A DNA stretch of 51,660 nt from Aplysia californica (Eukaryota). The translations under genes and the position numbers were made by a program. The DNA lies in NCBI RefSeq assembly GCF_000002075.1, contig NW_004797311.1, forward strand, positions 1,581,517-1,633,176, in the 5' to 3' direction. This document shows, in pieces, positions 11,872-51,660 of the stretch. Position 1 is the first letter of the stretch; each line of letters starts with the position of its first letter. A model generated the notes under the pieces. It searched no databases, was not told the DNA's origin, and worked only from the letters and a program-made list of their open reading frames with translations.

Positions 11872-12762
11872 CAGAAGTCTCTGCCAAGGATCCTGGTGCT
11901 TGGGAGCAAGAAAAATGCAGGATCTTTTAATTAAACTAACGGGATCTTAGCCATAGTAAGAGTAAGAGACTCATGGTCAGGTCCACAATCGGTCAAATGG
12001 ACTCCTCTTAGTCTTACTCGGAAATGAACTGAGTGGGTTTATAATTTATGGCAAGAAAAAAGTGCTCAACTTTGATGACCGATCACAGTGGCATGAGGCA
12101 TGCAATTTGCACTCATCCTATCGTGAGTTTCAAGATATACTTCTACACTATTGCTCCTCCCCTTTACCTGTCCGACATTTATAGCTTTCCATCCCACTTT
12201 TGTTGCAATGCACCATTGGGTTGTGACCACACCAACTTCAGTCTGTTTAGCAAATTGGGGTGCTGCTGCAATGGACAGGGATACAAAAGCAGCGAAGAAT
12301 TCACAGTTCGATGTGATCCCGTCTGATGCGGACTTGTAAGTCCTACCAACCCAGCTTGTGATGTAAGTTCAGGTGGAGAACTCAGTTGCAAGTGCAGTGT
12401 TTGGGAAAACAACCTATCAATAAGTTCATACCTCAGTGTGACCCGTTTGGGGCAAACATTGTACCATTTCATCGAGATTTTAACAACACAGCCGTGATCA
12501 CTTTCACCACAGCAGATGATCTGTGATGCAACACGCAGTATAATGACTGCAAATTTTACTGCTAGGTAAATCAGCTACGCCAGCCCTGGATTTTGTTCAA
12601 TAAATTATTATCTGAAATGCAGAATCTAAGCCGATGTCGGCCTTCAGAGCAGAATCTTAGGGGTGACTTTAGTGTAGAAAAACATCTGTCTTCTTAAAGC
12701 AGCGAGATCTTAATTAAGCGAACCGGGATCTTAAGCGATGGGATATTAGGTTGGGACCACTG
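11872..12762 (+). mobile_element. MITE family A, copy 2 (diverged)
   Basis: TA-CAGAAGTCTCTGCCAAGGATCC ... GGATATTAGGTTGGGACCACTG-TA; shares internal GGGGCAAACATTGTA with copy 1. Confidence 0.8.
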
Positions 12763-17204: not shown

Positions 17205-17942
17205 CAGCCTCATGGTAAAAAAGTTGGGAGCAAGGAAAAAGCGGGATCTTAGGTGAACCGGGATCTTAGCTGAATGGCCAGGGGAAGGATCCACAGTAAC
17301 TCAGGGTCAGGCCCATAATCTGTACAATGATCTTCCCTTACTTTAAAATGAACTGACGTGACTCTGGGCACTAAAAATTCTTTCAGAAATCAGTTTTTCC
17401 TTTTTTTTTTGGTTTGGGGGTGGGGCTTTTTAAAAAATACTGCGTCAGGTGGGAACCAGTTGGCTTCAAGCAATGCCCCTCCACCATAAATGTATTGCTT
17501 TCCATCTCAAACGGAGTTCCCCGCCCATGTCATGATGCATCATAAATCATTGTTGTGACCACACTGACCAAATTTTAAAAAAATGAAAGGCAGGTTCACT
17601 GCCAACAGATGACCCTATTATGCAGAGGTGATCAGTATGGGCGCCAGTCTGTCTAGGAAGTTAGAGCGCAAAACTAAAAAACGAGACAAGATCTATGTTC
17701 GGGAAAACGTAAGCGTCCACGAGTTCATAGTTTGATGGAATGGAGTCTGACACGCCCAGCTTTCTGATTTTTTTCCCCCTTAAAATTATGACCTTAAAAG
17801 CGGGATCTTAGCCGAATGTAGCTCCTTCAGTGCGGGATCTTAGGGGTGATTTTTATAGAGTAAAAATTCCATTTTTCCCAAAACAGCGGGATGTTAGGCG
17901 AACTGGGACGATAAGTGGTGGGATCTTAGGTGGAGACTACTG
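17205..17942 (+). mobile_element. MITE family A, copy 3 (left end damaged, internal deletion)
   Basis: Colinear with 4220-4750 and 5030-5168; ends GGATCTTAGGTGGAGACTACTG-TA. Confidence 0.85.
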
Positions 17943-18216: not shown

Positions 18217-18873
18217 CTTGAAAACAAAAAAATGTTCATGTATTAAAGTTAAAGAGAACGACAAAACTTGACAGCTGCTGTTAATAATGATAACATTTTA
18301 ACACAGAGGCATTTTATTAATAATACCATTTGTATTCCCGCTCAAACCATCAACCTAATGTTCCCATCTCCATCTAATATATTTTTACATATATTTTGAA
18401 AATAAGGATCACTTGAATTGAACTTTATAAGAGAAGACAATAAAAACAGCTTGCCTCCATATCTTTTTAGTAAAAGTTTTCAACAGTTTATCAAGTTTAT
18501 AAATACTCCCTTAAGCCTTAAGCTTGCACCATCCATTACCTCAACCTCAGAACAGAAGCGCTCATTAAAAAAACAAGTAATTTCCATTCAAAGTTCAATG
18601 AATCAATGAGATTATTGTTACAGCCCCATCAGCATGCTTTTCATTACATGATGGGGGGGGGGAGAGTCAGTTCATAAGAGTGCTGAGAGGCTTGATGTTA
18701 GATGATATATTACAACGTGTTTAATTTTTAAAAACCCACAGCAAACAAACCAAGGACATTTGACTAAAATAATGTCAAATAGTGCAGAGTATAAAGCAAG
18801 TTCAGTTGTCACTCCAAGTCAGTCAACCTGGATATCAAAGTCGAACACTATTTCAACACAGAGGCACAATATA

Positions 18874-19706
18874 CGGTCGAACTTGTGTAAGACAGCCACC
18901 CATTGTCAAGGAGAAAAGTGGCCGTATAAGACAGGTGGCCGTCTTAGGCAGGACTGACCAAGATGAAGAAAACAAACCATTCCATTCTGAGGTCCCAACC
19001 GAAGGTAGCCGCATTGTTGTTGTTGTTGTTGTTGTTGTAAAATGTCATTTCCGCTGGGTTTTTCTTTTTCTTTTTTTTTTCTTTTGTTGCTGCTTTTGTG
19101 CAAGGGTGACAATAAAACGAAATGTGTCAGACAAGGAGGACCGAGTGCTATGGTAAAACAAACATATGGGTCGCCATCACTCGGAGAACGAGCAACGCTT
19201 CTGTCACAAGTTCACATTGACATCCATTGTTACTTTGTTACAGACTGGGTAAACAGTGACCACTCCTCTCACTTACGATTTTAATGAGTTCTGGGTGGGG
19301 CGTCTGGGTTATGAAGGATCACACGATTACCTCACCAGCGGCTGAAAATTTGTTACCTTTAGGTCAACAGTGGGAGGGGCCTACGCAACATGATCGGTTG
19401 GAAGGACTAGACCTACCTAACACAAACAGGTGATTGGATTATGACGGCTCGCCTAGAACGCCAGGGGCCAATGCACAGTTTATGACAAAACGTAATGGAG
19501 TCATTAAGGTGGCCGTCTAAGACAGGTGTTATTACTTGGTGTGATAGGAGTTGTGTGTTAAAATGTGGTGGCCGCGGCCGCGTTGGACAGGTGCTCGTTT
19601 TACACAGTTAAATTATATAGAAAAAAACGCAAGGGGGGGAAATGGAAAGTGGCCGTTTGTACAGGTGGCTGTCTTAGAGAGGTGGTCGTCAGGGCAGGTT
19701 CGACTA
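18874..19706 (+). mobile_element. MITE family C (pogo/Tigger-like CAGTCGAACC termini), longest copy
   Basis: TA-CGGTCGAACTTGTGTAAGACAGCCACC ... GGTGGTCGTCAGGGCAGGTTCGACTA-TA; subterminal GGTGGCCGTC repeats. Confidence 0.8.
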
Positions 19707-21014
19707 TATATTAGCATCACAATATATATCAGCAGCATTTAAGATCATACAAGTGCCAACCCAAAATCCACATATAGCTATACTCCTTGATATAAGTGAG
19801 CATACATATATACTGAACAGGTTTAAAAACACATTGTGCTCATGGAAACAGACTTAAATGATGATGGTTCTTTTCTCCATTCCGAACCAAGCCCCATGAT
19901 AAAATCATTTCATATGTAGATTAATTAATTGAAGCAAAGAGACCAGATTGAGAAACAAATCTCACTTTCATGAGCGGCCAAGTGAAAAAATCAAACACTC
20001 AAAGTATGTTCTGCTACTATCATCTACTCCTAATAGATCTTATGAGATTAAAGTACAGTAAACTGAAGAAATTAAACACCTTATGTTTTTGTGGAAGGAC
20101 AGCTACCAACCGGAATATTATATATAAATACCATTTGAGGCACTCAGACACTGACAAAGCTAATTCCAAAGATGTTCATTATAGTCTATGCCTGGTGAAA
20201 AGACAGGCCAGTAAATAAGATTGATTCGACATTGATGAATACAGAATAAAATTCCAATGAGGAATGAGCAGTATTGTCTGTGACATTATCCCATTTCAAG
20301 ATTTTAAAATGATCTGCTGAGGCTGAAAAAATTAAGTTAGGAAGGTCTGTGTATTCTTTAACCCTTGGAAAACAAAAACTGGGTTCAATTTTTAAGCTGA
20401 TTGCCCTACGCACGCATGCTTTCTCCTCCTTGTCAGTTATGATGCATAACATTAACATTGGCATCAGTAGAAAGTTCTCTAGATCTCATCCAGATCCATA
20501 TATAGCCGATCATAAAATTGAGACAAATTGAACCTGAGAGCAAGGAAGAGTTACTATGGCATTAGATATTCCAGAATGCTGACTTAAGCATATTAAGTGG
20601 AGCTGTGGGCAATTATTAGCCCAATACTTACAAGACAGTGACAGCAAAAAAGAAGGCCCACCTTGCACAATAGGAAAGGGTTTTAGAACAGAGCACCTCC
20701 TTTTTTATAAGTGTCACTATCATTATGTGCGAATCCAAACCAGTTGCATTGATGTGTCGATACAATATAATGGCACTGTTGAGTCTTCATAGTTACGCAT
20801 TGTTGACCTCTATGCCTCTCTGTGGTCAGTTATCAGCATCGAAATAGCAGCTTTGAAAAGTCTGAATGCTCTGTTATAGTTAGGGTCAGCCAGTTACATT
20901 TCCGTGTTTTCTCAGCAACGTAAAGAAAGTGATTACAATCTGATGTTGTTTATAAAAACGTAAGCTACACAGCTTAACTGATATTTATAAATCTTTACAG
21001 CCTCAGGTGTTTAA

Positions 21015-26181: not shown

Positions 26182-26965
26182 CAGTCAAACCTGTCAAAGA
26201 TGACTATCCAATGTCAAGGAGAAAGGGGGTTATATCTTCTTAGACAGATGGTCCTCCTGGACTGTCATTGCGATACAGTAGTCTGTGCCTAAGATCCTGG
26301 TGCTTTGGAGGAAGGTGAACGTGGGGTCTTAGGTGAACAGGATTTTAGCTGATTCATCCAAGGTGAATCATGTCATAGTAAGGCCCACAATTGGTAAAAT
26401 GATATCTCCTTTCTTTGAAATCAACCCACGTGACCTCTAGGTGAGTTTTTATTAAGATTTATGGCAAGCAAAGAGTGGTTAACTATTATGACCAGGCACA
26501 AAGGCATGAAGCATGCCATTTTCACTTATCCAATCGTGAGTCTCAAGTTCTATGTCAATCTCAATGCTCGACTCCTTTAACTCTCCAAAATGTATAACTT
26601 GCTATCTCTGACCGAGTTCCCTGCTCATCTCAAAACCCACCACTGTTTGTGACAGCACCAATTAAAACCCAGTCTGTGCAGCAAATCCAGACATTCAGAC
26701 GAAAGACAACTGCTATGGTTAGGGAAACCGAAGCACCAAAGAGCGAACTGTTTGATATGATCCCATCTGATCAGGATGATTTGGGTGACTTTTACAGAGA
26801 AAAAATATTGTTTCCTTAACACAGTGGGATCTTAAGCAAACTGGGGTTGTAAGCAATGGGATCTTAGGTGGAGACTACTGTATAGAAAAAAATAAAAAGG
26901 GAGAAGTGAAAGTTTGTATAGAGGATATTGTCTTGGAAAGGTGGTCATTAAAGTAGGTTCAGTTG
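26182..26965 (+). mobile_element. MITE family C copy interrupted by a family A insertion
   Basis: CAGTCAAACCTGTC..CCAATGTCAAGGAGAAAG at left; AGGTGGTCATTAAAGTAGGTTCAGTTG-TA at right. Confidence 0.7.
26276..26880 (+). mobile_element. MITE family A, copy 4 (nested)
   Basis: TA-CAGTAGTCTGTGCCTAAGATCC ... GGATCTTAGGTGGAGACTACTG-TA. Confidence 0.85.
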
Positions 26966-27479: not shown

Positions 27480-28040
27480 ACACTGTAGAAGTCTAAAGTC
27501 AATGTACTTTGAGGTGCACTTGAGACAAAATAATAATAATAATCATAAAAACGGAAAAAGGCAAGGGCGGTAAATACTCTCCCCCCCCCCTCCACAGAAG
27601 CAATTAGCTGTGCTTTTTTTTGCGTGCTTAGGTCCTAGGCTTGTGTGGAGTAGGCGAGAGGAGGGGTTGTGTATCACAAGATTGGCAGCCCCACCCCTCT
27701 TTGCAAGAGGCTGCACACTTGTTGGGAGAGGTGGGGTAAGGCTGCATTGTTTCGTCGAGTTGTTGATTACTGTTGCAATATGCTTATTGTGGTGTAAACG
27801 CACCTTGAGAATAGAAGGACATGTAGTGTGAACACACCTTAATAATAATTATTGTGATGTAGGCCTAAGGGACGTATCACGTGACTGTGATTTCGTGCAA
27901 GAGGCGGGAAATCTGGTCACTCTCTCACTGAAGCCGAAGCGAGTAACATCGGCTAACGAAGAACTAGCAGACGACCAGCAGGTGGGGCCCCACCAACATC
28001 AACTATCATCTAGATCTACTACTCCAAGACTCAAGTAAGT
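27480..28040. promoter_or_regulatory. Putative, possibly bidirectional, promoter
   Basis: E-box TCACGTGAC at ~27877; E2F consensus GGCGGGAAA at 27903-27911; CCAAT at ~27681; + strand donor CAA|GTAAGT at ~28035. Confidence 0.45.
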
Positions 28041-30559
28041 CGTAACATAACACTTATCTTGTCAAATTGAATTGTTTATGTTCTGAAAAATTTGAAAAGG
28101 CACCATTCGATTGGTGCAGACTAATGACTGCCCACACTGACCAACGCAATTAAACTGTCTTGGTACCGGTAGGCCCATTACCGATCGAACTCAAAAGCGT
28201 TGCTCATCATGTTTCTCATTCTCAATTTGTCAATTTCAAATTCTCTCAAATTTCAAATTCAAGTCAATAGGCATAGATCTAACCTATCTAATCTAGGGCA
28301 ATGGTCGAAAAAAGAAAAATCTCCGTTCCGACCCAATCTTTGTTGCTTCCCTTGATTCTCTGACACAGCCAATGCATAACACTGTTCACGTATCCCTTAA
28401 ACTACTGAGGCTGGTCCCGACAAAACTCTATTGAGGTGTTCTTCATTATACATGCTCAACAAAGACAGATCTGAGGTCTGAGCAGTGAAGTGTTGTTGAT
28501 TGGACAAGCCAGTCAAATTACTGTAGGCTACACAATGAACTTTTAGTTGAAATCTTTCTTTTATCTGGATTTTTTTAGGGAATTAAATATTTCTCCAAAT
28601 ATACATGACCAAATAAAGAACTTCTGATTTATCATTTTGATTCACTATCTAAAGTGCGTGGTACAAATCTACCAGTCTGTGGTGAAACATTGTTTAGTAG
28701 GCTCTAATTTTTCTCTACTTTTATCACTCTATGTAAATCAAGTTTCAAAGAACATCAATCATCCCTTACGCGGAATACTTGTTCTTTGGTCTAGAAGTTG
28801 ACCATCAGGGAGGTAATCAGAAAAATGCCAACAAAGCCTGACAAGGAAAGTTGGTATTCTTTTACTTTCCTTCCCGTCTCACACTTAGCGACCAGTTGTC
28901 CATTTTCGACTAAATATTGATGTGCTGAACACGAATATCAACTTCATTTCCGTCGCACAATAGGTTTTTGGAATATTTTATTGTTCGTAATTGAGCTATA
29001 GATACATCACAATATGTCTAACTGCGTGATAATTTGCACGCTTTGGACCAATCCGGGGATTCCAGCCCCCCCCCTCCCCCTAGACCTAGAGTGACAAAAA
29101 AACAAACCCGGAGGGTTGTTTTAACCCAGAATTTGATGGTAGCCAGTCATTTCGTCATACGGTCATCTCGTCGCACCCCATCATGCATGAAATCTGATAG
29201 ATGGAGCCACCACACATTTCAAAAATAATTTTGAATTCAAGGTCCAGAAATTGCATAAAAATAGAGCAATTTCATTGACATAGAAGGCCACCTCTATTCT
29301 CACCCGGGGTGAGAATAGTGCAGGCGGGTCTTGTGGCTATTCTCACCCGGTGCGCGTGTCAACAAATTTTGCGTTCACCCTAAACCACAGAATTCTACAC
29401 TGTGATAAGAGAAAAATTGTAGAATTCTGTGCTGTGAACAAACGTTCCATTACAACTGTACTTGTAGCCTACTAAAAGCGTACAATTTTGTCTGTGGGCA
29501 GGGGAGAGAGAGAGAGTGAGAGAGAGAACAAAACAAAATGGCGACCCGCGTAGTTCGGCTCGATTCGAAAAGTTAAATAGCCGTAGCATCTTTGTAGACA
29601 ACCAAATTAATTTACTTTTGTGTTTTAACATCATTTTTAAACTTTGTTTTGGTCAATTTGATCGTCCACACCGATAGACAGTATTCAGAAAGAGACAGAG
29701 AGAGAGAGAAGAGGGGAGGAGTAGATCTTGTGAGAACTTCCGGGCGGGTGAGAATAGCCACTTTCGACATAGAAAGTGAAAGGTAAGGAAACATGGCGAG
29801 AATGAGAATGGGCATGGAGGACTGCTTTTTACGGTAGTCTAGCTAGATCTAGATCCAGATCTTGAAGTACTAGTACTAGAAGCCATCATGAAGTCTGCAA
29901 CTATAGAGGAGTTCTTAGACTTAGTTACCAATTAGTTTTGATTTTAACTTGCGTTGACTTCCAGTATCATCAGTTTACTGTGTAGGGAGCTATCATAAAA
30001 TAGTAGCCTGACAGACAAGATAAGTTGAGAAAGAGTAGCCTATCTACAAAACAAGCTGACTCTGACACCAAAACATCAAAAAAATCAAGTGAAGGAAAAA
30101 CAGGTCCACTCCACTTTCACCCAACAATCCCATTCCAAAAATTTGAGCAATATAAAACATAGATCTAGATTTAGATTCTAGTATCTTACCCTTCAAAATG
30201 GTAGGAATCTATTATACAGCACCAACAAATTTGGTAAATAGTAAATTCAATCAATAATATGACCATGGGGCCTCGCCTAGATTCTAGAGTACGATTGTCA
30301 TAGTCAACATTTTTGGCCGTTCCATTTCCCCCCCCTCCAGAATAGGATAATCACAACTGGTTCCAGCGGTCATTGGAGTGTGAGCTGGGGCATTAAAAAA
30401 AATAAAAATATTCCAGCATCTTCGTATTTTAACCAAAATCTAACAGTGAATACGAAAACATTAAACTTGATGAGCCAGCTACGCCAGAATTATCAGGTAA
30501 AATCAGTGGATGTAATACGTAATGTGACGATGGCAGTTGGACAGCAGACTGAACAGTTC

Positions 30560-30860
30560 AAAATACATTATGTGGTCGGATATTTAGGCCTAAGTCAAAT
30601 CGATTTGGTCCAAAGATATTATGATCCTTTAAACCAGCTTTTGTTTTGTTTTTGTTTTTTTGTACAGGTTGGTGTACTGTGCCATCAGAGCATACGACAC
30701 TGTTTGTTATGTTTAAGGGAAGGCGTTTCAGAAATTCCCATATATTTAGATTCGTCATATGGGCTACACAATGTCATCGATTGTGTTCAGCATGTTCTTG
30801 GGAAATGATCAGAATCAGACATTTGAATGCAGATGAAACATTCATCGACAGCTGACATGT
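30560..30860 (-). pseudogene. Possible hAT transposase remnant
   Basis: HCVAHMTNLNI (HCVAH at 30759-30773) matches the hAT C.AH.LNL motif; the flanks contain stops. Confidence 0.3.
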
Positions 30861-32200
30861 ATAGAGCTATTATATAACAGTTACCTCAGAATTTAGGACA
30901 ATGAAAAAATCCTAAGGCTTTTCATTTTTCAAGCAATCTCTTTGTTATTTGGTAAGTTCATCACAAAACTTTTGTCAACAAGAAAACTGCATACTTCAAT
31001 GAATCTAGACTCTAGTTTTGTTTTAGTAGTAGATTATTTTGTGTGCTACATTGGAAAAAACGCGAGAATTTTAGGGGGGAGGGTTAAAAAAAATTCCCCT
31101 GCAAAAACTTATTAGACTAGCCTAGGATATGATGTTGACAAAACGTTGCAATATGGTTGTAGATCTAAAGACATCTTGCGAAATTTGAACCCTATTGATA
31201 GAAAAATGTTGAAACCTTCATATTTTTAGTACTAAAATCTTATGAAATGAGACGTAATTTGTACGATAAGTGTGAGCAAAAAGCAACCTAAACATATATA
31301 ATATTCCTCTTGGTTGCCCAGGAATGATACAATGTAGTTCTTTCCATTCAAAACCCTATCTATTACATGTACCCTCAATTACACTGAAGACAGTTATGTA
31401 ACAGCAAACATTACACATATGGCAAATTAAAAAAGAGCCCAATTTTTTTTAGCTCCTTGCCTTAAGTGCTTTCTGTGTGCTGTGCTAAACAAGCTTGTGA
31501 CAGACTGAGCCAATGAATTCAATGATTGATAGGAAATCCTAGTTGCAGTGAGTGTAAAGAAAGGCAGATTTCCTCAGTTCTGTATCTTGCGACTTCCAAG
31601 TATACAGTAAACCTACTAGTATTGCATTACAATGAGGTATTATCTAAGTCCTCAAAATTATGCCTTTTTCTTTCACCTTGAGGATGATCTTGTCTTCACT
31701 TTTCTATTAGCTGCGATCCTCTGTCATCTCTTCCCAGGTTCACTAAAATTGATCTCAGTTGAGGTTCTTGCCGGCACCTTTAAACATGTTGTGCATCCTG
31801 AAAGTGGTCTTTACTTTCAAAATCTTTTCTCTTCCTCCAATTCTCCTAACTGGAGAAAGAAAAATCTCATTGTAACACGTCATATTAACTGTCATTATAT
31901 ATATATGACACCATGCTGAATATCCTTAGCACAAAAGACAAAATTGTGAAAACTGCGTTTTGTTGAAAATGTACTTTTAACCATGACGCTCATATTTTTC
32001 CTTATTGGCCTATTTCAGAAAAAGAGAGGATGCTTAATTGCTGTGGCTGCGCAAGAAATATTTTTGTTCAGTTGCTTTGATGTTGACTGCAGAGATTATA
32101 ATTTTTTTCCGGACAAATGACTCCAGCCAACTGTTGTGCCATTGATTTCTGTGTAAATAAAGGTCCCAGTACAGTGCATGTTTTTTTTTCAAGGGTAATG

Positions 32201-32980
32201 CAATGGAACTCAGATTCAATGAAGTCGTCGGGCCTGGCCTGTAAATTAGTTAAATTCGAGTGTTTGTTATGGCCAATATGATGAGGTTTTTCTGTTGATA
32301 ATTACAGGCACCGAGCAAGTAATGTATCTATTTGACTTTCTCAATTAAAAGTAGTTTGATTTTAAATGAGAGGCATTTTCGTTTCTTTGACACCAAAGAA
32401 TTGCTGGAAAATTCCAGGAAAATACACTTAACTCTACCAAGTACACACTGTCCAAAAAGGCCAACACATTCAAGTGCACGCCTGTGTTATCTATCATCTA
32501 TAACGTATTGTTTGCCAAACAAGTTATATTTCTGAGTAGAGCCTAGCATACAGCAAGGTTTGATTCCACAGTCCAGCAGGCAATTCATTACGTAGATCTA
32601 GGTCTATTTCAAGCTTAGCTTATCATTGTAATATTGATCAGAAACCGGGGAAAATATCTCTACTGACGTTCCACACCCAGACTGTTTGTACGCCCTCCCC
32701 CCATCCCCCCAGAAACACGCACACACAGTCATATGTCACATGTGTGCTGGCTGCCTATCCTAACCCAACACATGCGCTAAGACATGGGTGCATGATAACA
32801 GCACATGTGTTGATATAAAAAAGAGGCCGTTGATTGGTCGTATGCAGTATAGAGCAGTTCATTCTGCAAGCAACTTCATTGGATCCGAGCGTGCTCATTT
32901 ATGTGTTCGTTGAATCAGACTTATTTTCATGATTTTTATGAATAAAAAGATCGGGGAACCCAACACCTTTCGTTGAATCT
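32201..32980 (+). mobile_element. MITE family D, copy 1
   Basis: CAATGGAACTCAGATTCAATGAAG ... TTCGTTGAATCT; colinear with 41038-41953. Confidence 0.8.
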
Positions 32981-34320
32981 TTGGCAGTCATTTTCTCTCT
33001 AATTTTACCTCTGAATTCAGGTGATTCCTACCTCCTTCATTCGCAAATATCTCAACTTGTATTCAAGAAACATGGATATATAGTTTTCACCAAAAGCAAG
33101 ACAAATGAACAAGCTTTAGGATGACAACAATAACTCTAAACTCCCCAAAATTGACGAGAGCCAGATTCCACCGTACCGTGTCTTGACACATATATATACA
33201 CTAAAGTAAATATCATGCATAAAAATATCTAGGCTTAGATATATAATAGAATCTGTAGTATGCGTTTCACCACCATTAGAGGAATTGTACCATCTACTAG
33301 TCACATTTATTTACTATCACCCCCATCCAATCTACCAAAGGATAGCAATGATTGAAGAACAAGATATCAAAATAAGAAACAAAAAGAACAAAAAAAGAGA
33401 CAGGTTGGCTAGATGTATTTGCAAGAAAGCAGATAAGACAAAATAATATGAATAAATGGACAATGGGAAGTTGGGGAACGGACACAATGCTGAGTGACTG
33501 ACTGACTGACTGATGAGTAAATAAACAAGTGACTTAATACCCGGGCATAATAAAAACAAAACAACAACAAAATGCTTGGACTGTGTCAATATTTTCTGCA
33601 AAGGCCTTCTTGTGTCTTATGTCTGTCAAAATTTTGAAATATTCCTTTCTTGTACCTTAAGAAGCATATATGCCGTTAACAATCCCTCTTCAAAGACGTA
33701 TTTCCTGAGCATCTTTTTCAAACTGCATTCAGTTTCTTGGCATTTTCTTCAACTTTTTGTATCTGGAACAGTCTACAGGTACCATTCACATTCGTCAATA
33801 TTTTGTGTAGGTAAATAGTACACACATGATACAAGAGTGGACAACTACAAAAGAAGTTTAAAAGAAATTATATAGAGTCCTTTAAAGTCATTTTCAGCCA
33901 GTGAATGCACATGTACCGGCGGTACATCTCAGTCACAGATTAAACCGGTACCTCAGTCCTACTTTTTCTCTATAGATGTACTGGTGTAACATAAAAAAGA
34001 AAAGACATCAGGTTGAACTATTTTGAACAAATGTCAAGTTTAATATTTTGAGATTCCATTCCAAGCCATGAAAAACTTTGAGGGAAAAAAACATGAACCA
34101 TTAGAACTGGAATCAACATAGAATTAAAATTTGGGATCTGCATTAATTATACTTAGTTACAATGCATAAATGATCAAAGTTACATGATGCAAATAATTTG
34201 AAATAACAATAAGGACTTCTTTCCAACAATTTCAGCCAGACAAATGAATACAGATCTTTGAAACACCTGAGAAAAAACAATGTATTTTTACAATCAACAT
34301 TGACTTACGGAAAAGTAATT

Positions 34321-35147
34321 CAGTGGAGTCCACTTATAATGAATCCGGAAAAAACGAGAAGTCTGTTATAAAGACACGATTCTAAAACCCTGCTTTTTTT
34401 CTCTTCTTTACCTTTGTAAATAAAATACTGCTATAGCGCTATCAGACAAACACACGAGTCGGTTATAGTTATAGCGGAATATAGCTGCTGCTGTGCACAG
34501 TGCATGGGCCAATTATACACAAAGAAAAACCTCGCCAGTTGAGAAAGTTGTTGGTGATCTAGTGAAACAAAGAATAGGAGAGCCCACGTGTGCCAACAAT
34601 GAAGGCCGGAGCGACTGAATGGGGAGGGTGTGACATGCGCAAACAAGCAGAACGCATCGGGTGATAGGCCAGCGTAAGCCTAGTTTAGATTATCAAGGCC
34701 TACCATGCCTCTCACTTCTCCGATGTGGGGATGGAGAGGTTACAGCAATGTGATGGACGGAGCGAATGTGTGACGTGCGCAAGCAGATAGAATGCACCAC
34801 ATAGTGAGGTGGGGTGGGGTGGGGGGAAAACACAGTGGGCGAGTTAGCCCAGAGCCCTTTCTTTCTGATCGCCAACGCCGAGTTGTCAACATCGCTAGAT
34901 CTAGCGCTAGAGAAAGAAACCTGATTCGATTTTTGATCAAGTAAGATCTAAAGGTCACGTTGAAACAAAATCATCATCAGGGGAGATAGAAAAAGGAAAT
35001 AAACAGAACACCAAACTCATAGATTAGGCCTACTTTACAGTTTACCCTTTAATTTATTACTGGATCCCTTATAGTTATAGCGAGAATCCTGCTATAGCGG
35101 ACATTTTGCTCCGGTCCCCTCCCTCTCGTTATAACAGGATTCCACTG
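34321..35147 (-). mobile_element. MITE family B, copy A (uninterrupted)
   Basis: TIR CAGTGGAGTCCACTTATAA / TTATAACAGGATTCCACTG-TA; reverse complement is homologous to the copies at 44355 and 46782. Confidence 0.9.
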
Positions 35148-35506
35148 TATCTTGCAATTGTGACAATAGTAAAAAGGTCAAGCAATCGTCAAAATAACGT
35201 ACACAAGATCTTTCATCCAGCTCATAAACCTTTATCTTTAAGTATTCATTTGTATTGCAAATGAATAGAACTGGATCCATGGAACAGATGGCAAAAGATA
35301 GTAGCCAATGGAAAATATAACTCAGTATCAATCTCAAGACGAAAAAGACAAAGAATGACTAGGTAGAGAAGGTTTAACAACTGACAAGACACAAATTGAC
35401 AAAACAAAGTGAAGAACATCAACTTTGCCCTTGCATTCATTGCAACATACATTTTCTTGAACATTTGTCCAATGAGACACAAGTGCCACCATCACAAGAC
35501 ATTTAA

Positions 35507-36969: not shown

Positions 36970-37269
36970 CAGTTGAAACTGTCTAAGATGGTCATCCATT
37001 GTCAAAGAGAAAGTGGTTGTCTTACACATATGGACGTCTTGGGCAGAACAGATGAAAATAAAGAAAACAAACCATTCCCTTTATAGGTATCAACCACCCA
37101 TTTATTTATTGTTTTCTTTTGAAAGGAGGGCAGAAAGGGAGGTTTGGGAGTTCATCTTGGGCAGTGCTAATATATATAAATAGAGAAAAAACGCAAGGGA
37201 GAAAGTGAGAAATGGTAATTTATACAGGTGATTGCTTTGGACAGGAGGCCATGAGGGAAGGTTCGATTG
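36970..37269 (+). mobile_element. MITE family C, short copy
   Basis: TA-CAGTTGAAACTGTCTAAGA ... GGTTCGATTG-TA; shares GATGAA.A.AA.AAACCATTCC with the copy at 18960. Confidence 0.75.
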
Positions 37270-38599
37270 TACTTTGCTTTCAACAAAAGCACAAATATGC
37301 AATTGAAATTGAAACAGAAAAATCAAATTTGTTTGTCTATACCACAGAAAGTCAGGTATTCATTTATGCACAAAGTTACAAAAAAAATATTGGAAATAAA
37401 TTGAAAGAACAAAGGAAATTTACAGTGGATGGGGCAGACCACGTCTCTTCTAGCTTCACTCACAAACTGTCTGTACTTACTGTAAAGCAAATTTATACAC
37501 TCATTCTTGTGTGAAATTTCTCTCTGATCACTTTGGTACACAAATTTGACAGCAGGCTAGATTTTATAACCAACATTACTCTAATGATCATTGTAGTGCA
37601 CAATGTCATTTGTAGACTCTTCTCTCCTTTGTATTTAACCCCCCTCCCCCTGCTTTTTAAACTGGAAAACAGGTAATGGAAAAGTACTGAGTAGTTCAAC
37701 ATCAGGAGTGCCAAGAAGTAATCACGATGAAAAAAAGGTAGTTTTTTTTTCAGAATGGGTAACATGATCTACTAGTCATTGTTTGCCTTATTAGGTTTAT
37801 AGAACAGACCCACTGTGGAATGTAACCATCCTCTTTGAAGTCTGTTCACTAATTATACACATGTGCTACGATAGAGTCTTTAGTTCTTTACAAATTTAGG
37901 ACTCTGATTTTCAGAGTCTTTAACCTGAATGAAGTACGTGTACATTTGTTTGAGGTCTGCATACTTTATCTTGGTTGAGGAGCTTCAAAATGAGGGCAGA
38001 CCTGCAATAGTTATTGTCATTTTTGTTTTAGTAGAGCTTTTACGGCGCTCGCAACTGCACAAGGTCATATGAGCGCCAAGGGGTGGATGTCAACAGAGAA
38101 GTCCTTACAGGGAATCAGACTTACTCTGCTCAACTCTCTAGTTTAAACAGCAAAAGTCTGCTTTGACTATTAAGGCACCCCGGAAATAGCGGGTCACAAG
38201 AGTGCGACAAACATACAAAAGAAGTAGAGGAAAATGACGATAGTAAGAGTTAGAAAAGAAAAAGCAGCAGTTCACTGTTGTAGTTCAGGCACAGTTATGA
38301 GCATGACATTGTTGGATCAGCCCATTTACAATTCTACTGTGCATTAGAACGAGAAATGCCCCCCCTTTAGGAATGGCCTAAAGACACTTCGTCAGTGGCA
38401 TCGCCAGGGGGTATTTTACATGATGCAATGACTAGGATTCAAAACAACAAAAGAAGAATTGTGATTTGATTTTTTAAAACCCACAAAATAGGGGAAGATG
38501 GCGCTCATTAGCGCGCAAGAAAATCCAAATCCTAACTCAGGGCAAATTTACACAGAACAATGGGTGTTTTGAAAAAACACTGAACACAGTTTCCCAGTC

Positions 38600-41037: not shown

Positions 41038-41953
41038 AAGTGGAACTCGCATTCAACGAAGTCGCCGGGCCTGACCTTCAATTTAGTTGAATCCAAGTGT
41101 TATAGTTACAGGAAACATGAGGTTTTGTTGTGTCAATAACTACAGGCACCGAGCAAGTAATGCATACTATATTTCGACTTCCTCAATCAAAAGTAGCGTA
41201 GCAAGGTTTCAAATGATGGGCATTTTGGTTTTCGTTTCTTTAATGCCATACCAAAGAAATGCTGGAAAATTCTAAGAAAATACACTGAACTCTACCAATC
41301 ACACACTGCAAAAGATTCAATTCCTTCAATGGCACGCCCGTATCTCCTATCATCTATGATGTATTGTTTGCCAAACAAGTTGTGTTGCTGTGTAAAGCCT
41401 AGCATACGTCAAATGTCTGATTCCACAGACCAGTGCGCAATTCATTATAATATGTAGATTACGTCAAGACTAACTAATCATTGTAATATACAGGAGCCGG
41501 GGGGAAGGAACTGACTGTGACGCGTTTCTATCTCTACTGACATTCCATGTTCAGACTGCTTGTGCCCTCTCACCCAAGACACACGCACACACAGTACAGT
41601 CACACATGTGCTGGTCACTGGTTCGATTCTGACACATGCTAGGAAGAGACGTGCGTATGCCAACAACGCGTATGTTGGTATAAAAGAAGGCCGCTGATTG
41701 ATCGCATAAGATATAAACAATAAGTAAAGCGAATAATGGTTCACCATGCAGGTGCCATGGACGGTTTCCAGGAATAGATAAACTTTGTTTCGGGAGAAAA
41801 ATAACAGAAGCTATGTCAGCAGGGGCTGTTCATTCTGCAAGCAATTCTTTGAATCTGAGCTTGCTCATTTATGTATTTTTGTTGAATTTACTGATTTTTA
41901 AGAATTAAAAAAACGGGGAATCCATCTCCTTTCATTAAATTGGAGTTCCATTG
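41038..41953 (+). mobile_element. MITE family D, copy 2
   Basis: GTGGAACTCGCATTCAACGAAG ... GGAGTTCCATTG-TA; lies in ARL14EP intron. Confidence 0.8.
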
Positions 41954-43070
41954 TACATTAAATTGTTTTTCATGGTCGCAAGTAGAATCACAGGTTTGAG
42001 ACCTACTTGTAGCAAAAATGACCGACTGAGGCCGCATTGGACAGGGATCATTATGAACAGGTTAAAAATACAGGAAAAAACACAAGGGCCTCACAAACAA
42101 AGGCCATTAGTTCAGATGAACGTTATGGAGAGGTGACCGCCGAGGCAGGTTCGACAGAACAATATAGTGTCACGACGCTGTGGAATCAGGAATCATCAAT
42201 TTTGGGGCATAAGGAGTTATTGGTATAATCTTAGAGCTTGTTCATTGGTCTTGCTTTTGAGGAAAAAAAAATACCATCTATCTTGAATAGAAGCAAAGAT
42301 ATTTGTGATTGAAGGAGGTTGGGGTTGTCTGGTGTCGGAGGTAAAATTAGCAAAAAAATAGCCGCTAAGATTTGGAGAATTCCAAAGCTTGAATGTCCTT
42401 GAAAACCTGTAAATTTACATTACATTTGTGTTCCTTCGATCAATGTTTTTCAGTAAAATCCACCCAGAAATGTGTTTTTAGGTCCATAGGCTTATAGATC
42501 TAGGTGTTGAGGAGATTTTTAAAAATTGATAAAAATTGCCCAAAGAGTGGAAAAAGGCCAGTTTCTTCGATTTCTTTTGATAATTGCCTGATTTCACCAC
42601 GATGCCTCATATATAGATGGGATCAGGAAGCTGTGACAATGCAGATGCAGAGAGCTATCAATCTCAAATCTCAGTATAATGCTTAACAGTCAGAATCAAA
42701 ATCATTCAAAATGTCATTGCATAATCGTAGCACATGATAATACGAACTCAAACTTTGTATACAGATAGCCGCAGGTAAATTGTTCTCTGTGACGAGGCTA
42801 AAGGCACATATTGCATAATTATTTGCAACATTAAGATAAAACAACACATATATAACAAATATGATATCAGAAATAAAAAAAACAAAAACAAAACAAAAAT
42901 AAGTGGAAAAAACATTTAATGAAACAATAATAAAAAGGCATGGGTGAACACTTTCATACCACTGCATCTACTAATAATTACAAGTATTTTTCAAGAACAC
43001 ACACTAAAAACACACAGATAGATTACACTGTTTATCGCTGCTACCCTTTCATCGAAACTTGTAAACTTAC

Positions 43071-43199: not shown

Positions 43200-43440
43200 G
43201 ATCTAATGATGTAACCAGCAACGATAAAAGGCCCTCCTGGTGTGTGTTCTGTGGACGAATTTGAAGCAACAAAGCTGAGATAATGACAGGAAGCGATGGA
43301 TGGGAATGAATGGGGGGGGGGTGGGGGGGGGGGGTTAAAGCTGAGTCGACTTTGTATGGGAAAAGAAGACAGATTTCCTAACACACAACAAGGAATCAAA
43401 CTCAGAAAATTGAAAGAGAGATCCAGCCTTTCAGTTAATA

Positions 43441-43601
43441 AAGTCGAAACTGTCTAAGACAGCTAACCATTGTTGAGGAGAAAAGTGGCCGTCTCACACA
43501 GTGTCTTATAAAATGTAAAAATACCCAAGAGAGGAAATGGAAAGGGGCTGTTTGCAAAGATGGTTTCTTATACAGGTGGCCATTAAAGCGGGTTTGACAT
43601 T
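43441..43601 (+). mobile_element. MITE family C, short copy
   Basis: AGTCGAAACTGTCTAAGACAGC..GAGAAAAGTGGCCGTC ... GGTGGCCATTAAAGCGGGTTTGAC. Confidence 0.65.
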
Positions 43602-44354: not shown

Positions 44355-46401
44355 CAGTGGAATCCTGGTATAATGAGAAGGAGGAGACAGGTGCGAAATG
44401 TCTGTTCTGCCGTCGTAAGGGAAAACGACGAATGGTCAAAATTTTTCCATTATTTTATTTTTATTTATTTCATAGAGTATTTAATTCTGCATCTGATGGT
44501 GTAAAAATTTTTGTCATATCCTAATCCGTTGTTGCGTAATTGAGAGTTCCATCGTTTTCCCTTACACTGGCAAGCTCCGAACCAGAGCTCAGTGTAAGGG
44601 AGAACGACGAATGGTCGATCGGTCAAGGATCACTGCTCGCTCGGCGTTGTCCCCTAGTCTCTGCCGTTGGGCAAATTCGGCATCACTTAGTGTGTCTTTC
44701 TGTCTGTCTTCACGTATTAGGCCTATGCTGATGGTGTGAATTGACAAGAGCAGGCGATCGAGTATAATAATGTCTTGCAGATTCAAACTGTCCTTGTCGA
44801 TCTCTACTTTGTGGTATGTTTTCCGATCCGATCAACTGAATCCTTTATTAAATAAATACAACGCGTCGCATTATCTCTCCCAAAAGCGTTTGTGATACAG
44901 TCTTGTTAGATTGTTACATTTCTTACGAGAAAGTTTGACTTTGCAATGATTTGATCGTATTATTGACATTCTAACATTGTTGATACTTTTGGTCGTGCAG
45001 GGAAAATTTTTGCAATTAGCGAAAATAAAAGTAAAACTCGCTTCTGAAGAGAATACAATAAAGAGATATCATGGAGACCAAACTTTGGTTCCGAATGAGA
45101 CAGTTTTTAATCAAGCTGTTGAAAATGTGTGCACATCTGATTTGAACCCTGACTGTGTAGTATTTAACCAAGTGAGGAAAGAAAACTAAGGACGTCTTCC
45201 GAGTTACAGTTGGGATATAACAAACACCTATCTTTATACGTATAATAGATAGTTTGTATACATCTTATTTTTATTTGCAGTAACTAGTACACAGTCATTA
45301 CTGTCAATAATGCGTCACAACTGACCATCGCTTACGCCCATAGACGTTCAAAAGTGTAAAGGAGAATGACGAACCGTACCATTCGTCGTTTTCGCTTCAT
45401 TCGCAAGGCTCACCTGAGGGTGTGCAATGTATGGGAGAACGACGAATGTCGAATAATTTTGCTACTTTTCAACCTAAACCATTCAAACTTTAGAAACTGC
45501 TTTATGAACACCTCAATCAGATATCTGGTGAATTACAGCTTAAAAGATTGAAAAATAGAAGAGATAAAGTGAAAACAGTTCTTGCCTCTCCCGAAAAATT
45601 TGCCTCGCTACCTGTGCAGGACCATTCGTCGTTTTCCCTTACGACTGCAGTGTTATTAAAGTAGGCCTAATCTATGAGTTTGGTGTTTTATTTATTTCAT
45701 TTTGTTATCTCCCATAATGATGATTTGGTTCAACATGACTTCCAGGTCTTACTTGATCAAAAATCGAATCAGGTTTCTTTCTCTAGCGCTAGCAATGTTG
45801 ACAGCTCGGCGTTGGCTGACGATCAGAAAGTTCTCTGACTCAAGGCTAACTAGCCCTCTGTGTTGTCTCCCACCCCACCACACCCTGTGGTGTGTTCCGT
45901 CTGCTTGCGCACAATGTGAACATACCACATCCTGCCCACATCACACAATCGCTCCATCTATCACAGCACTGTGACCTTTCCATCCTCGCATCGGAGAAGT
46001 GAGAGGCATGAAGGCCTAGATAATCTAGACTAGGCTGGTCTGTCACGCAATGCGTTTCTGCTTATCTGCGCATGCCACACCCTCCCCACTCATTCGCTCC
46101 GGCCTTAATTGTTGGCACACGTGGACTCTCCCATTCTTTGTTTCGCTAGATATCACCAACATGTTTCTCAACTGGCCAGGTTTTACACGCATACCATATT
46201 GTGTAAATGGCCTATGCATTGTGCACAGAAGCAGCAATATTCCGCTATAACCGACTCGCGTGTTTGTGTGATTGCGCTATAGCAGTATTTTATTTACAAT
46301 GATAAAGCAGGGGGAAAAAACAGACTTTTACTACTTTTAGAATAGTGTCTTTATAACAGACCTCTCATTATTTCAGAACTCGCTATAAGTGGACTCCACT
46401 G
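44355..46401 (+). mobile_element. MITE family B, copy B (interrupted by a Sola1-like element)
   Basis: TA-CAGTGGAATCCTGGTATAA ... TATAAGTGGACTCCACTG-TA. Confidence 0.9.
44407..45650. mobile_element. Non-autonomous DNA transposon with 4-bp TSD (Sola1-like)
   Basis: 31-bp TIR CTGC(C/A)GTCGTAAGGGAAAACGACGAATGGTC; TSD TGTT on both sides, consistent with the single CTGTTA at the same site in copy C. Superfamily inferred from the 4-bp TSD and CTGC termini. Confidence 0.8.
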
Positions 46402-46781
46402 TATTGTTTATAAATATAATAATTTATAGAACCACTCCCGTCTCATAAAGGGTGTTATTTTGTAGCTCTTTTCGGTTTCTTTAGGGTCCTGAACACAACT
46501 TGGGCATAAAAAAACGTCGCAAATGGTTATTTCAGGGGACCCCCCCCCCCCTTGACTATTAAAGCAAGCTTAAACAAAAAAGCGGCATGGATAGCAGCCA
46601 TCAGACGGGAGTGATTCTATAAAAATACCCCCTTACCCCCTTTTTCTTTGCTTACATCTAACATGCATTACAACAAACTTGAATAAATACACATATGGCA
46701 GGTAAAAAACACTCAATATATTAGGCCGCTACCATTTTACACTTCTGCTCCAGAAGTTTTGAAGTCCAGGTACCACTACTA

Positions 46782-49596
46782 CAGTGGAATCCTGTTATAA
46801 CGAGAGGGAGGGGACTGGTGCGAAATATCTGTTATAGCAAGATTCTCGTTATAACCTGTATTACATGTCCTGGGCAACAACGTCATTGCACACCAGACAG
46901 GTCCGTAAGTGCTCAGTTCTCCCCAGCATCAAAGCCCGCAAGGTATCCATACTGATTGTGGCTGTCTGATTATGGCGACGTCTTTCCTCTACAGATAATA
47001 GTTCCTTTCTTCCTTCTCCCCTCTCTATCCCCATTTCCTGCATCCTAATGATTGCGTGGTGTTCTGCTGTCTCCCTGTCTTCTTCATCCCGCAACTTTTT
47101 CTCCAGGGTCTTCAACACTTCTCCTTTGTCAAATTTCACCTAACCAACAACCACAGCACTGCCTGCCAGCCTATCAGACTCCTCATTGCCTTTCACTTCA
47201 GAGTGCCCAGGACAGAATATCCACGTGATAGCTCTAAGTGATGAGTGTTGTATTGGGTTCATCCATTCACTCTGAAGAAGCCCTTTCTCGACCCTTCGCA
47301 AGATGCTCTAAGAGTCTGTGACAATGATGAGATGGGTAGTTTTTGTTCTTGTATTTTGAAGCCAGCCAAGCGCTCTTGTTATGGCCTCAGTCTCCATTTT
47401 CATGCTTGAAGTCGTTCTTTCTATGGCCCCTGACATGCTATGAACCTTTTTATTCCCACTGTACACCACAAAACCCCATCCACTTCTCTCACCCCTCCTG
47501 ACTGATTCATCCGTATAGATCACTGGATCCTCTGGCTTGAAATGCTCTTCAATTAACTGTCATATGTCATTGTTGTTAATGACAGCAGCACATTCCCGTC
47601 TTTCACGACCCATAGTGATGTGAACGTTGGCCAGGCTTCTGCAAATGGGGCTCAGTTCAAACCATTCCTTTCCACAGCATATTTCATTGATGCCACAAAC
47701 TTTCCTCAAGGAGTCTTCGGCTCCTGCCATCCATGAGCTGCCCCGTTTGACCCTGTTTCCTTTGATGCTGCTTAGGTTGTCATGCAAAGGGTGCCTCGGG
47801 TCTCCCAAAACATTCAAGTACAACTTTGCCTGTGCCACCTTATGCCTCACTCCGATGCTGGCCAGGTCAAGGATGTATCTCATACAGACAACATGGGTGT
47901 CCTTTGTGCAACCTAGAACAGCCCTCACAGCTGCATTTTGTACTCTCTCCAACCTGCCTTTCTGAGTCTTGGACAGGGAAAGGATGCCCAGACCATAGTC
48001 TATGACGAAATGAACCACCAGCTGCATTAAGAGAAAAAGAACTCTCTGTTGAATTCCCACTGAAGCCAAGGTCTTCACTACATTGATGCCCTTCTGAGCC
48101 CCGACAGTAACATTGTCAATATGTCTTCGGAAAGAAAGTGTCCTGTCCAGAGTGATTCTCAGATACTTCAACTCATGCTGTCTGTCTATGAGAAAGTGGT
48201 CAAACACAATTGGAGGGGTAGGATCTTTCACAATACGATTGTTTTGTTGAGTGAGCACCAGATGACCTGTGCTTTGTCTGGATTGATGACCGGATTGTAT
48301 TCCTCACACCAAATTGCGACCTTGCTCAGCCTGTCCTGTAGCATCCATCCAACTGCTAGCCTATCATGACCTTGTCCGTAGACCATCACATCATCTGCAA
48401 ATATTAGGATTCTTCTTGCTCCACTTTTGGCAATTTTGAATGTATTATATTTATATGTTGAACAGAACCGGTGATAACCTTGGGGCAGTCCTGAGGCAAT
48501 CACTACTGGGTCTGACATCCATCACCCACTTCTCAGTGCCACCTTCCTCTCAAACAGAGCAAACAGGGGTCAACATCCATTTCCATCAGGAGATCCATGA
48601 GCTTGCAGTAATCAACTCGGTTGTAAACATCCTCTAGGTCTACAGCAGCCATTGCTGTCTCCTCCTTTCTCTGGAACGATTCAAATACATCAAAGGCTAA
48701 CACAGCCATGTTTGTGCAGGTGTCTTTCCCTGGTCTATAGCTTCCAAGGCCGTCTGGAAGGAGCTTTTTCCTCTCTAAGTAATTTGCCAGCCTTTTGGCC
48801 ACAATCTTTTCCATTCTGTAGCCCTTGATGTTGGGATTCTTGTTATAAGGGATCCAGTAATAAATTCAGGGAAAACATTAAAGTAGGCATAATCTATGAG
48901 TTTGATGTTCTGTCATAATAATTTCTTTTTGTTATCTCTCCTTTGACGATGATTTAGCTCAACATGACCTCTAGGTCTTACTTGATAAAAAATCAAATCA
49001 GGTTTCTTTCTCTAGCGCTAGCGATGTTGACAGCACCAGAAAGAAAGGGCTCTAGGCTAACTCGCCCGCTGTGTTGTCCCCAACCCCACCATACCCTGTG
49101 GTGCGTTCTGTCTGCTTGCGCACATTGGGTACACACCTCATCCTGCCCACATCACACATTCGCTCCATCCATCACAGCATTGTGACCTCGGCTCACCATC
49201 TCCGCATCGGAGAAGTAAGAGGCATGGTTGGCCTGGATAATCTAGACTAGGCAGCATGGCCTATCACGAGATGCGTTCTGCTTGTCTGCGCATGCCACAT
49301 CCTCCCCACCCACTCGCTCCAGTCTTCATTGTTGGCACACGTGGGCTCTCCCATTCTTTGTTTCACCAGATCACCAACAAGTTTCTCAACTGGAGAGGTT
49401 TTACATAATATATATATAAATATAATTCACCTACACTGTGCACAGCAGAAGCAATATTCCGCTATAACCGACTCACACTGTTTGTCTGATTGCGCTAAAG
49501 CAGTTGTATTTTATTTACAAAGATAAAGAAGGGAAAAAAACAGGGTTTTAGAAGAGTGTCTTTATCCAGATTTCTCGTTATAAGTGTACTCCATTA
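46782..49596 (+). mobile_element. MITE family B, copy C (interrupted by a LINE)
   Basis: TA-CAGTGGAATCCTGTTATAACGAG ... TTATAAGTGTACTCCATT. Confidence 0.9.
46855..48834 (-). mobile_element. 5'-truncated, frameshifted non-LTR retrotransposon with RT and RNase H (I-group)
   Basis: RT motifs EKIVAKRL, VDLEDVYNRVD, GLPQG, FADD, LKYLRITLDRTLSF; RNase H motifs IYTDES, ETEAI, VTDS, WIFCPGH..VKGNE..DRLA; 14-bp TSD GATTCT(C/T)GTTATAA at 46841-46854 and 48835-48848. Confidence 0.92.
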
Positions 49597-49788
49597 CTAC
49601 TACCAAGGGACCTGTGTAATTCTACAATCTAAGTACTACAAAGTCAAAGACAAAAATAAGAAGAGGCTAGCAGTACTCAATGACGGCTAGACGGCTAGGC
49701 TAGCCTCAAATTAATAGTGATGGCAAGACTGGCAAACAGCAAAAAATAGGCCTACTCAATTATGCTTGCTACGTCGCATTGCGCTTAC

Positions 49789-49920
49789 CTCCAGTGCTAA
49801 CACGCCGCGTTGCAATTAGCGCCAGTGCTAAATAAAACGCAGTGTGTGTAAATATAATAAGGCTTAAAATCTACGCTTCGTTGTTGGAAGTTCTGATAGC
49901 CGAATCGAGAGCGCGTCTGT
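49789..49920 (-). other. Candidate non-coding first exon of the ARL14EP-like gene
   Basis: GAG|GTAAGC donor at 49788 in a CpG-rich unique segment; no ATG and an in-frame stop. The upstream boundary is a guess. Confidence 0.35.
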
Positions 49921-50635
49921 GTTTGAACCATAATTTTTTTTATAAGCGTGATCTAGATCTAATGAGACCTGTGTACTCAACAGGTTTCGGTAAGGCCTTA
50001 CCTAAGTCCTTAGAAGTTTAAGTACACGGCTAGCCATAAATCGAAAATATATCCATCATCCATCTTGTCAAGTAGGCCTAGATCTATGATCAGTTCTTTT
50101 CGGGAAGGCTATCTACATCTAGATCTAGTGGTAGACCTACTACTAGATCTAGATCTATCAACATCCACACTGGATCAGGTTGAAAATAAATCCTGACAAC
50201 GATGAGCAAACGCCAAGTGTGTTTCTCTATGATTGACAAACCAAATGAACCAACTTGAACTGTGAACAAAAAAGCGGTGATCTTATACTTTAGCACGTTA
50301 AATTCCCAAAGCCAAAGTCTACTAATCCCCGACTCAGATCTTCAAAACTTTGAACTGGCCTTAAAATGCGCAAACTACCGTAATTTTGTCATGGATAGAT
50401 GGTAAATAACATTGGATTTTGGTCTTCTATCATGATTTTTGGAAGCCATAATTAATGAGTAAAATCAAGATCTAGAGTCTAGATCTAGATTTAAAAGTGG
50501 TCGCTCGTTACGGAAGTCCTCAATTGATGAAGAATTTAACATGCTAAAGGCTAAAGTATAAGATTACCAAAAAAGCAAACATCATTCCGACATGATGTCG
50601 TTTCACTTCGATTTCATGGTTAGAAATCTTCCAAA

Positions 50636-50700
50636 TCTAGATCTAGAATTGATCTAGATCTAGATCTAGATCTAGATCTAGATATCTAGATTTAGATCTA
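50636..50700. repeat. Palindromic (TAGATC)n hexamer array
   Basis: TCTAGATCTAGAATTGATCTAGATCTAGATCTAGATCTAGATCTAGATATCTAGATTTAGATCTA. Confidence 0.95.
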
Positions 50701-50893
50701 CACTACACTATGCCAAGTTACATTTTTTTATGAACTGTAAAGCTACCTGGCGGTCCGATGAGTCAGGGGTAACTTTACAACGAACTACAAACTGCAAGAG
50801 GCAACGTTAAGTCAAGCAAAGATAAAGATCAAGGCTATGGCTAAAGCAACTTAGAGAGGAATTTCGAAGTCTAGATTCTAGGTCTTTGGAAAT

Positions 50894-51059
50894 ACTTCCG
50901 TAACGAGCGACCACCCCATCAAACACAATAAAGAAGAGCCAGAGGCCTAGACCTAACGCTACCCCTAACCCTACCCCTACCCTTACTCCTACCCCTACCC
51001 CTACCCCAAGCCCTCAATTCTGCTCTGTCTCATAGTGGTCGCTCGTTACGGAAGTCCTC
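50894..51059. mobile_element. Inverted-repeat element with telomere-like (CCCTAM)n core (Helentron/HINE-like)
   Basis: Perfect 21-bp IR ACTTCCGTAACGAGCGACCAC (50894-50914) / GTGGTCGCTCGTTACGGAAGT (51035-51055) flanking CCCTAA/CCCTAC repeats; third motif copy at 50497-50517. Confidence 0.55.
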
Positions 51060-51660
51060 CCAGGTCTTTTCTTAGACAACGGGGTCTTTCTTTGATGTAA
51101 TTTAGATCTACCTAAATGATGGCGTTCCTTACAATGATTACTCACCTCTAGTTTTGACGTCAGAGTCAGGAGCAACAAATGAGCGTCTTTATGATTCAAA
51201 AAGCGTGCTAAAATTTTGTGCACTTTTCGCAACCACCCAGAGTTCACAGACCTCTGCTGCGGACTGTCTAAAGATAAAGACTAGAATCTAATACAGATCT
51301 AGATTTAGGCCTACTGAACTGAAATTGAAAATCGCGGCATTCTCCAATGCGCCTAGATAGTAGAGTGTGAGTGGCGAGTGGCGATGAGTCCGACAACAAT
51401 CCTATTTTGAAACTGCAAAACTGTCTTCCAGGCACACCCCTTCTTTTGGTTAACTCCGGTTTTACCAGAGCTGGTTTTACTTAGAAGAGAGGCTAGCACT
51501 TGCGGCTAGCTGCAGCCCCGTCAGCCAGAAGCTGATTGGCTGCGGTAGGCTAGTGGTAAATATTGTGTTGGGCCTATGATTCCAGTTTTAGCAGTTTGGA
51601 AACTTCTGAAACAGTGCTATAAATATATGAATCCTAATCTACCTATTCCAGTACGGAGCT

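Follow-up and report, generated by a model that had tools for sequence, protein, structure and literature searches.

A TA-GATC-TA insertion in an Aplysia californica MITE copy as a probable transposon excision footprint

Introduction

How did six bases come to lie at a TA dinucleotide in one copy of an old MITE, where two further copies in the same stretch of DNA have none? The stretch, called the window here, comprises 51,660 nucleotides of Aplysia californica nuclear DNA (contig NW_004797311.1, positions 1,581,517 to 1,633,176, forward strand); it holds many old repeats and, on its minus strand, a C2H2 zinc-finger frame of 788 codons. We report that the six bases were inserted, and that they are probably the excision footprint of a TA-targeting cut-and-paste transposon whose tips start with G, the donor itself being putative. 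Excision footprints are already known as a kind, and one with a GATC core is a variant.

The repeats of the window

The MITE, family B, fits the Tc1/mariner type, with CAG-starting terminal inverted repeats, TA flanks, high copy number and no long open reading frame. Its three copies in the window, A, B and C (Table 1), are 85 to 87% identical in pairwise comparison. Copy A has TA beyond its right tip and TT beyond its left, where the flank consensus of other copies has TA; contigs of the sequencing runs compared below that align to it break off at 34321 and at 35149, the loose ends being AT-rich and their consensus having a TA beside the left tip. The summed depth in run X4, which is not a copy number, rises to 1e5 inside copy A against about 11 outside and indicates a very high-copy MITE. 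Of the 40 substitution positions listed for X4, 36 set copy A apart from most other copies, which puts its divergence at 4% at least. An autonomous partner was not found in this analysis, and no match to the family came from pattern scans of contigs from genomes, metagenomes and viruses.

TABLE 1 Coordinates of the features discussed (positions of the window)
Feature	Position	Strand	Description
Family B MITE copy A	34321-35147	+	827 nt, CAGTGG..CCACTG tips
Family B copy B	44355-46401	-	Flanked by TA on both sides, with an empty TA at 45790-45791; carries the nested element of about 44408-45650
Family B copy C	48844-49581	-	Truncated beside LINE relic; empty TA at 49019-49020
Short family B end derivative	46783-46860		One full tip, TA flanks
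TA-GATC-TA	34896-34903		Six inserted bases plus original TA; within 14-nt palindrome 34893-34906
AGATCTA	34944-34950	+	From C>T at 34947, rare in other copies; candidate local template
Nested element, 1.24 kb	44408-45650 (about)		Inside family B copy B; 30-nt inverted ends
189-nt element	46429-46617		GAA tips; inverted arms of 18 nt with 2 mismatches; flanked by TA or TATA
Decayed Tc1-like transposon (presumed family)	5756-7056	-	GQPR and QLDNARPH motifs
Decayed non-LTR retrotransposon (LINE) relic	47300-48843		Motifs of reverse transcriptase and RNase H type, identified by eye
Further TA-flanked MITE family	4190-5170, 11870-12764, 17193-17942, 26276-26880		CAG- or similar tips
Further TA-flanked MITE family	18872-19708, 36970-37270, 42030-42155, 43440-43600		CAG- or similar tips
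Further TA-flanked MITE family	32200-32980, 41040-41945		CAG- or similar tips
Chained TA-GATC-TA array	50638-50700		Includes GATATC and GATT variants
Presumed promoter-like region	27500-31400		13 merged motif sites, 3.3 per kb; chosen post hoc
Presumed promoter-like region	49600-51660		13 merged motif sites, 6.3 per kb; chosen post hoc

At least three more TA-flanked MITE families lie in the window. The words TACAGTA/TACTGTA occur in it 16 times against 6.7 expected, an excess that partly reflects the ends of CAG-tipped MITE families and partly, it is possible, +5 footprints. The nested element of copy B shows internal repeats of its end motif and has cost its host about 60 nt; no target duplication was visible and no obvious long open reading frame was seen in it. 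The element at 5756-7056 is, we presume from its GQPR and QLDNARPH motifs, Tc1-like. Directly beside its left end stands TACATGTA at 5748, perhaps because a scarred site was used again. The 247-residue frame of the LINE relic gave no match in Pfam.

The insertion and its polarity

At the site in question copy A reads CAACATCG-CTAGAT-CTAGCGCTAGAG, which contains TAGATCTA, and copies B and C both lack the six bases, copy B with one substitution upstream of its empty TA. The filled/empty difference described in the initial annotation is therefore real. The accompanying difference in the translated peptide is present too, but it translates the same bases and so is not independent evidence. Five placements of the gap are equivalent (starts 34895 to 34899), and by itself the site reads equally well as TA+GATC+TA, TAG+ATC+TAG or CTAG+AT+CTAG.

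We compared positions 34200-35260 at 80% likeness with contigs of 4 of the 22 listed sequencing runs, which belong to at least three named studies and possibly include the source sample; runs X6 and X7 (share 0.05) were left out. Contigs that leave out six bases at 34895 numbered 52, 28, 44 and 10 in the four runs (134 in total), against a comparison value of 0 to 17 in single-copy flanks. The corresponding depth of the empty state was 7489/24955, 1328/2985, 1976/9552 and 1288/4036 (21 to 44%), and loose ends at 34898 and 34901 likewise run on with empty sequence. As a control we used the tandem duplication at 34462, present only in copy A of the three window copies, for which the shares were 18 to 41%; shares below 100% at the insertion match these and would come from contig clipping. 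None of the 12 indels listed, of 130, was an insertion.

Because many other copies in the four runs lack the six bases, they are an insertion in copy A and not a deletion in B and C. A family consensus carrying them, which as the annotation had pointed out would turn B and C into deletions, does not agree with an empty state so widespread. A minor filled subfamily among the other copies is possible, the contig listing omitting those that match the reference. The copy A site thus gives the process a direction, which is not a proof of excision.

Only 1 of the 28 indel segments among the three family B copies has this form, and inspection by eye of five further repeat families brought no clean second case. 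In another repeat, one copy has TAGATCTAGGTCTA at 32593-32606 where a second has TAGATTA at 41455-41461, both being motif words; this pair is possibly a second +6 event, perhaps +GGTCTA, and was left uncounted since its alignment is ambiguous.

Related words across the window

The word TAGATCTA occurs 26 times in the window against 0.9 expected, about thirty times over-represented, and once poly-C and GA repeats are set aside the top four 8-mers by enrichment all derive from it. When merged sites were compared with 200 local shuffles, TAGATCTA had 21 (shuffle mean 0.9, maximum 5), TAGGCCTA 11 (0.39, maximum 2), TACATGTA 8 (0.96, maximum 4), TAGACCTA or TAGGTCTA 8 (1.04, maximum 6) and TAGGCTA or TAGCCTA 14 (3.84, maximum 8). 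TAGACTA/TAGTCTA (7 against 5.16) and TAGATTA/TAATCTA (16 against 8.0, maximum 17) were not clearly enriched. No CG- or GC-bounded palindrome is enriched in the window, and the AT-bounded ATCTAGAT, with 20 occurrences, overlaps the TAGATCTA units.

Three motif matches in the window are native codons of the LINE relic. We repeated the counts on a set of 45,149 nt in which the second and third family B copies, the zinc-finger frame and the LINE-relic hits were masked. Observed and expected numbers by core were 26/0.81 for GATC, 6/0.51 for GAWTC, 1/0.06 for GATATC, 10/0.38 for GGCC and 12/3.1 for GGC or GCC; GAT/ATC was not significantly enriched (11 against 7.3), nor were the +4 classes enriched (28/32.9, 28/26.8 and 14/15.2). 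GACC/GGTC, with 7 against 1.0 after masking, may be a class of its own or a product of transition decay of GATC and GGCC, as neighbouring transition words show similar excesses.

Ten chains, such as TAGGCCTAGATCTA at 50073, have TAs in common, and several of the ten are of mixed cores. The sites are clustered: 35 of the 58 merged sites fall in three regions totalling 9.1 kb, chosen post hoc, with 0.55 per kb elsewhere and no merged site in the 2.4-kb zinc-finger exon or frame. Two of the regions we take to be promoter-like from their CpG content and from motifs that we recognised. The median CpG observed/expected ratio was 0.66 at the sites and 0.54 at TA sites (p=4e-4, the sites not being independent of each other).

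Two side observations concern these words. A 26-nt word with CGCTCGTTACGGAAGT occurs in the motif-dense region twice in direct orientation (50891-50914, 51035-51059) and once partly inverted (50496-50521), and is possibly regulatory. The family B consensus itself appears to bear TAGTCTA, TAGATTA and TAGGCCTA words (34673-34703, 35020-35032), which suggests that its master copy was already scarred.

An excision footprint should derive from a site with a single TA, and the ancestral site has one in both the window copies and the contigs; its TA should be doubled around a non-tandem core of 2 to 4 nt, as is found in copy A; and the same product should recur at unrelated sites, as the merged sites of TAGATCTA do, one of them polarised by alignment. 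Of the mechanism proposed in the initial annotation, the insertion, its non-slippage character and the stereotyped TA-core-TA class thus hold, whereas excision itself we only infer, because the comparison is between an empty site and a scar and not between an empty site and the element; none of the contigs listed reads across the site.

Alternative explanations

A templated insertion during break repair of the polymerase theta type, with AGATCT at 34944 as the template for a broken end that then rejoined at CTA, is an unlikely account of the copy A site. In its favour, an AGATCT stands 47 nt downstream, and hardly any other copy shares it (at 34947, run X4 gives T>C in 56093 of 56629 depth). 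However, not one of the remaining 13 sites as far as position 49954 has AGATCT within 13 to 60 nt, the word occurs 48 times in the window so that a chance neighbour is expected, by our estimate, roughly 1 time in 10, and the GGCC and CATG classes are left unexplained.

Less probable again is a staggered break at CTAG by a host nuclease or topoisomerase, with fill-in and one untemplated A per end giving CTAG-AT-CTAG and no transposon at all. Copy A reads exactly so, and C..G is the commonest flank of TAGATCTA (12 of 26, mostly in chains); the other 14 lack one or both flanks and so are not CTAGATCTAG, and a 4-nt duplication is lacking in the GGCC and CATG classes. Because the flanks of the enriched words vary, the duplicated unit is TA and not CTAG.

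We give marginally less credit still to the idea that the words are protein-binding or structural motifs, assembled by mixed small mutations and selected near promoters. The location of the sites in higher-CpG DNA and their clustering in promoter-like regions would suit it, but the sole polarised case arose as a single +6 step within an old repeat, and cores of 3 to 6 nt would be atypical for one motif.

Slippage that duplicated CGCTAG is the least credible, even though copy A bears two ordinary 6-nt duplications (at 34462 and in a G-rich run near 34815, so that the +6 length alone is not diagnostic): as the annotation had held, plain slippage does not account for the insertion, since the best tandem reading leaves CG>AT, two adjacent transversions with a chance of about 1.5e-4 at 7% divergence, and CpG decay yields TG or CA rather than AT. 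In simulations of 400,000 trials each, random 6-mer insertion produced TA-GRYC-TA or TACATGTA 604 and 582 times (about 0.15%). Tandem duplication with 7% substitution did so 4208 and 4338 times, figures that are an upper bound.

A proposed model of cutting and rejoining

For the excision-footprint reading we propose the following course. A second transposon would enter the TA of an old MITE copy, duplicating the TA, and later excise, leaving short 3' overhangs of its tips on both flanks, as in Tc1/mariner, which end-joining would seal. In the simplest fit the tip is the trinucleotide GAT, whose last two bases would pair across the break to give GATC; with less overlap the same overhangs would give GA(A/T)TC through one mismatched base, and GATATC with none. 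By the same scheme GGC tips would yield GGCC, or else GGC or GCC where the overlap is complete, as it is in Sleeping Beauty, and CAT tips would yield CATG. A GAA-tipped element joined 2+2 and 3+2 would produce GATC and GAWTC and is nearly as good a fit. Each scar would restore two TA targets, so that repeated visits or later slippage could build (TAGATC)n chains.

Overhangs of 3 nt that rejoin via 2-nt microhomology would fit the several scar lengths observed, in a model made after the counts were seen and with some classes small. A plain 2+1 joining model would also give GAC or GTC, cores that are not enriched in the masked set (4 against 5.1 expected), in keeping with the 3-nt overhangs.

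Search for a donor

Family B is not the donor of its own scar, as its CAGTGG..CCACTG tips (CA..TG) cannot supply GATC. Any other CAG-tipped element was likewise rejected: the core would be CA, CAG, TG or CTG, and GATC is observed. Nor did the window yield a TA-flanked element whose tips are GAT or GGC.

The 189-nt element at 46429-46617 is, from its sequence, a candidate, though unproven, member of the donor class. It is the only convincing TA-flanked pair among the 26 G-tipped inverted pairs listed. Its GAA tips differ from those of the surrounding CAG-tipped MITEs. No second copy occurs in the window, and its arm had 0 matches in genome contigs and phages. The arm did match 44 metagenome loci and 1 viral locus; we treated these matches as chance because the similarity is no longer than about 24 nt and the second inverted arm is present in 0 of the 44 metagenome loci.

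Comparison with known systems

In published accounts, the cut that Tc1/mariner transposases make in the non-transferred strand falls a few bases within the element and produces 3' overhangs, and end-joining leaves 2 to 4 tip bases between two TAs (PMC6943129, PMC7913693). The footprints given there are TACAGTA/TACTGTA for Sleeping Beauty (PMC6943129), 0 to 3 bp for ZB (PMC7913693), 0 to 4 bp for Passer (PMC9976928) and the canonical +4 TACATA/TATGTA for Tc1 of C. elegans (PMC12632400). The copy A site is similar in having a short core between two TAs, within the range of 2 to 4 nt; it is different in that its GATC core needs G-starting tips and that the main product is palindromic and +6, not +4 or +5. 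The canonical C. elegans Tc1 footprint, as described in that source, was rejected for copy A, which gained six bases, and the +4 classes are unenriched.

Footprints of Stowaway MITEs in Triticeae were inferred from filled and empty orthologues and consist of 1 to 4 tip bases inside the TA duplication; new insertions into a TA next to an older footprint are described too (PMC1925063). The copy A footprint too comes from alignments and would place tip bases inside a TA duplication, but for Stowaway an element-bearing allele is known at the same site, whereas ours is known as empty and scar only.

The PHIS group, which includes ISL2EU, has tips starting with G or A, usually GG in ISL2EU, and ISL2EU is described as duplicating AT in A|AT|T (PMC4482050); TA-duplicating PHISTA families are described from rust fungi (PMC12730594). 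The G-starting tips proposed here and the 2-bp duplication resemble this group. ISL2EU itself was rejected, the duplicated unit here being TA, and no transposase was found in our analysis. Families with GAT tips may exist within the group. The literature that we searched, most subscription journals lying outside it, gave, as judged by titles and abstract openings, no account of these words as genome-wide animal footprints and no GATC footprint class at such density.

Implications

A wider interpretation, which we advance tentatively and regard as possible rather than likely, is that TA-targeting transposons of an unclassified group, tipped with GAT and GGC, leave overhangs of 3 nt that are rejoined by 2-nt microhomology, and that their cycles of insertion and exit have been a main writer of promoter-side DNA in this animal, seeding (TAGATC)n microsatellites and mapping past germline open chromatin. 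If the footprint reading is correct, the words that, microsatellites apart, show the strongest enrichment in this region would record departed transposons and not binding sites, a caution against calling such words regulatory in promoter scans. It would also provide an origin for a hexamer microsatellite, and the scar lengths would reveal the cutting geometry of a transposase that has never been seen.
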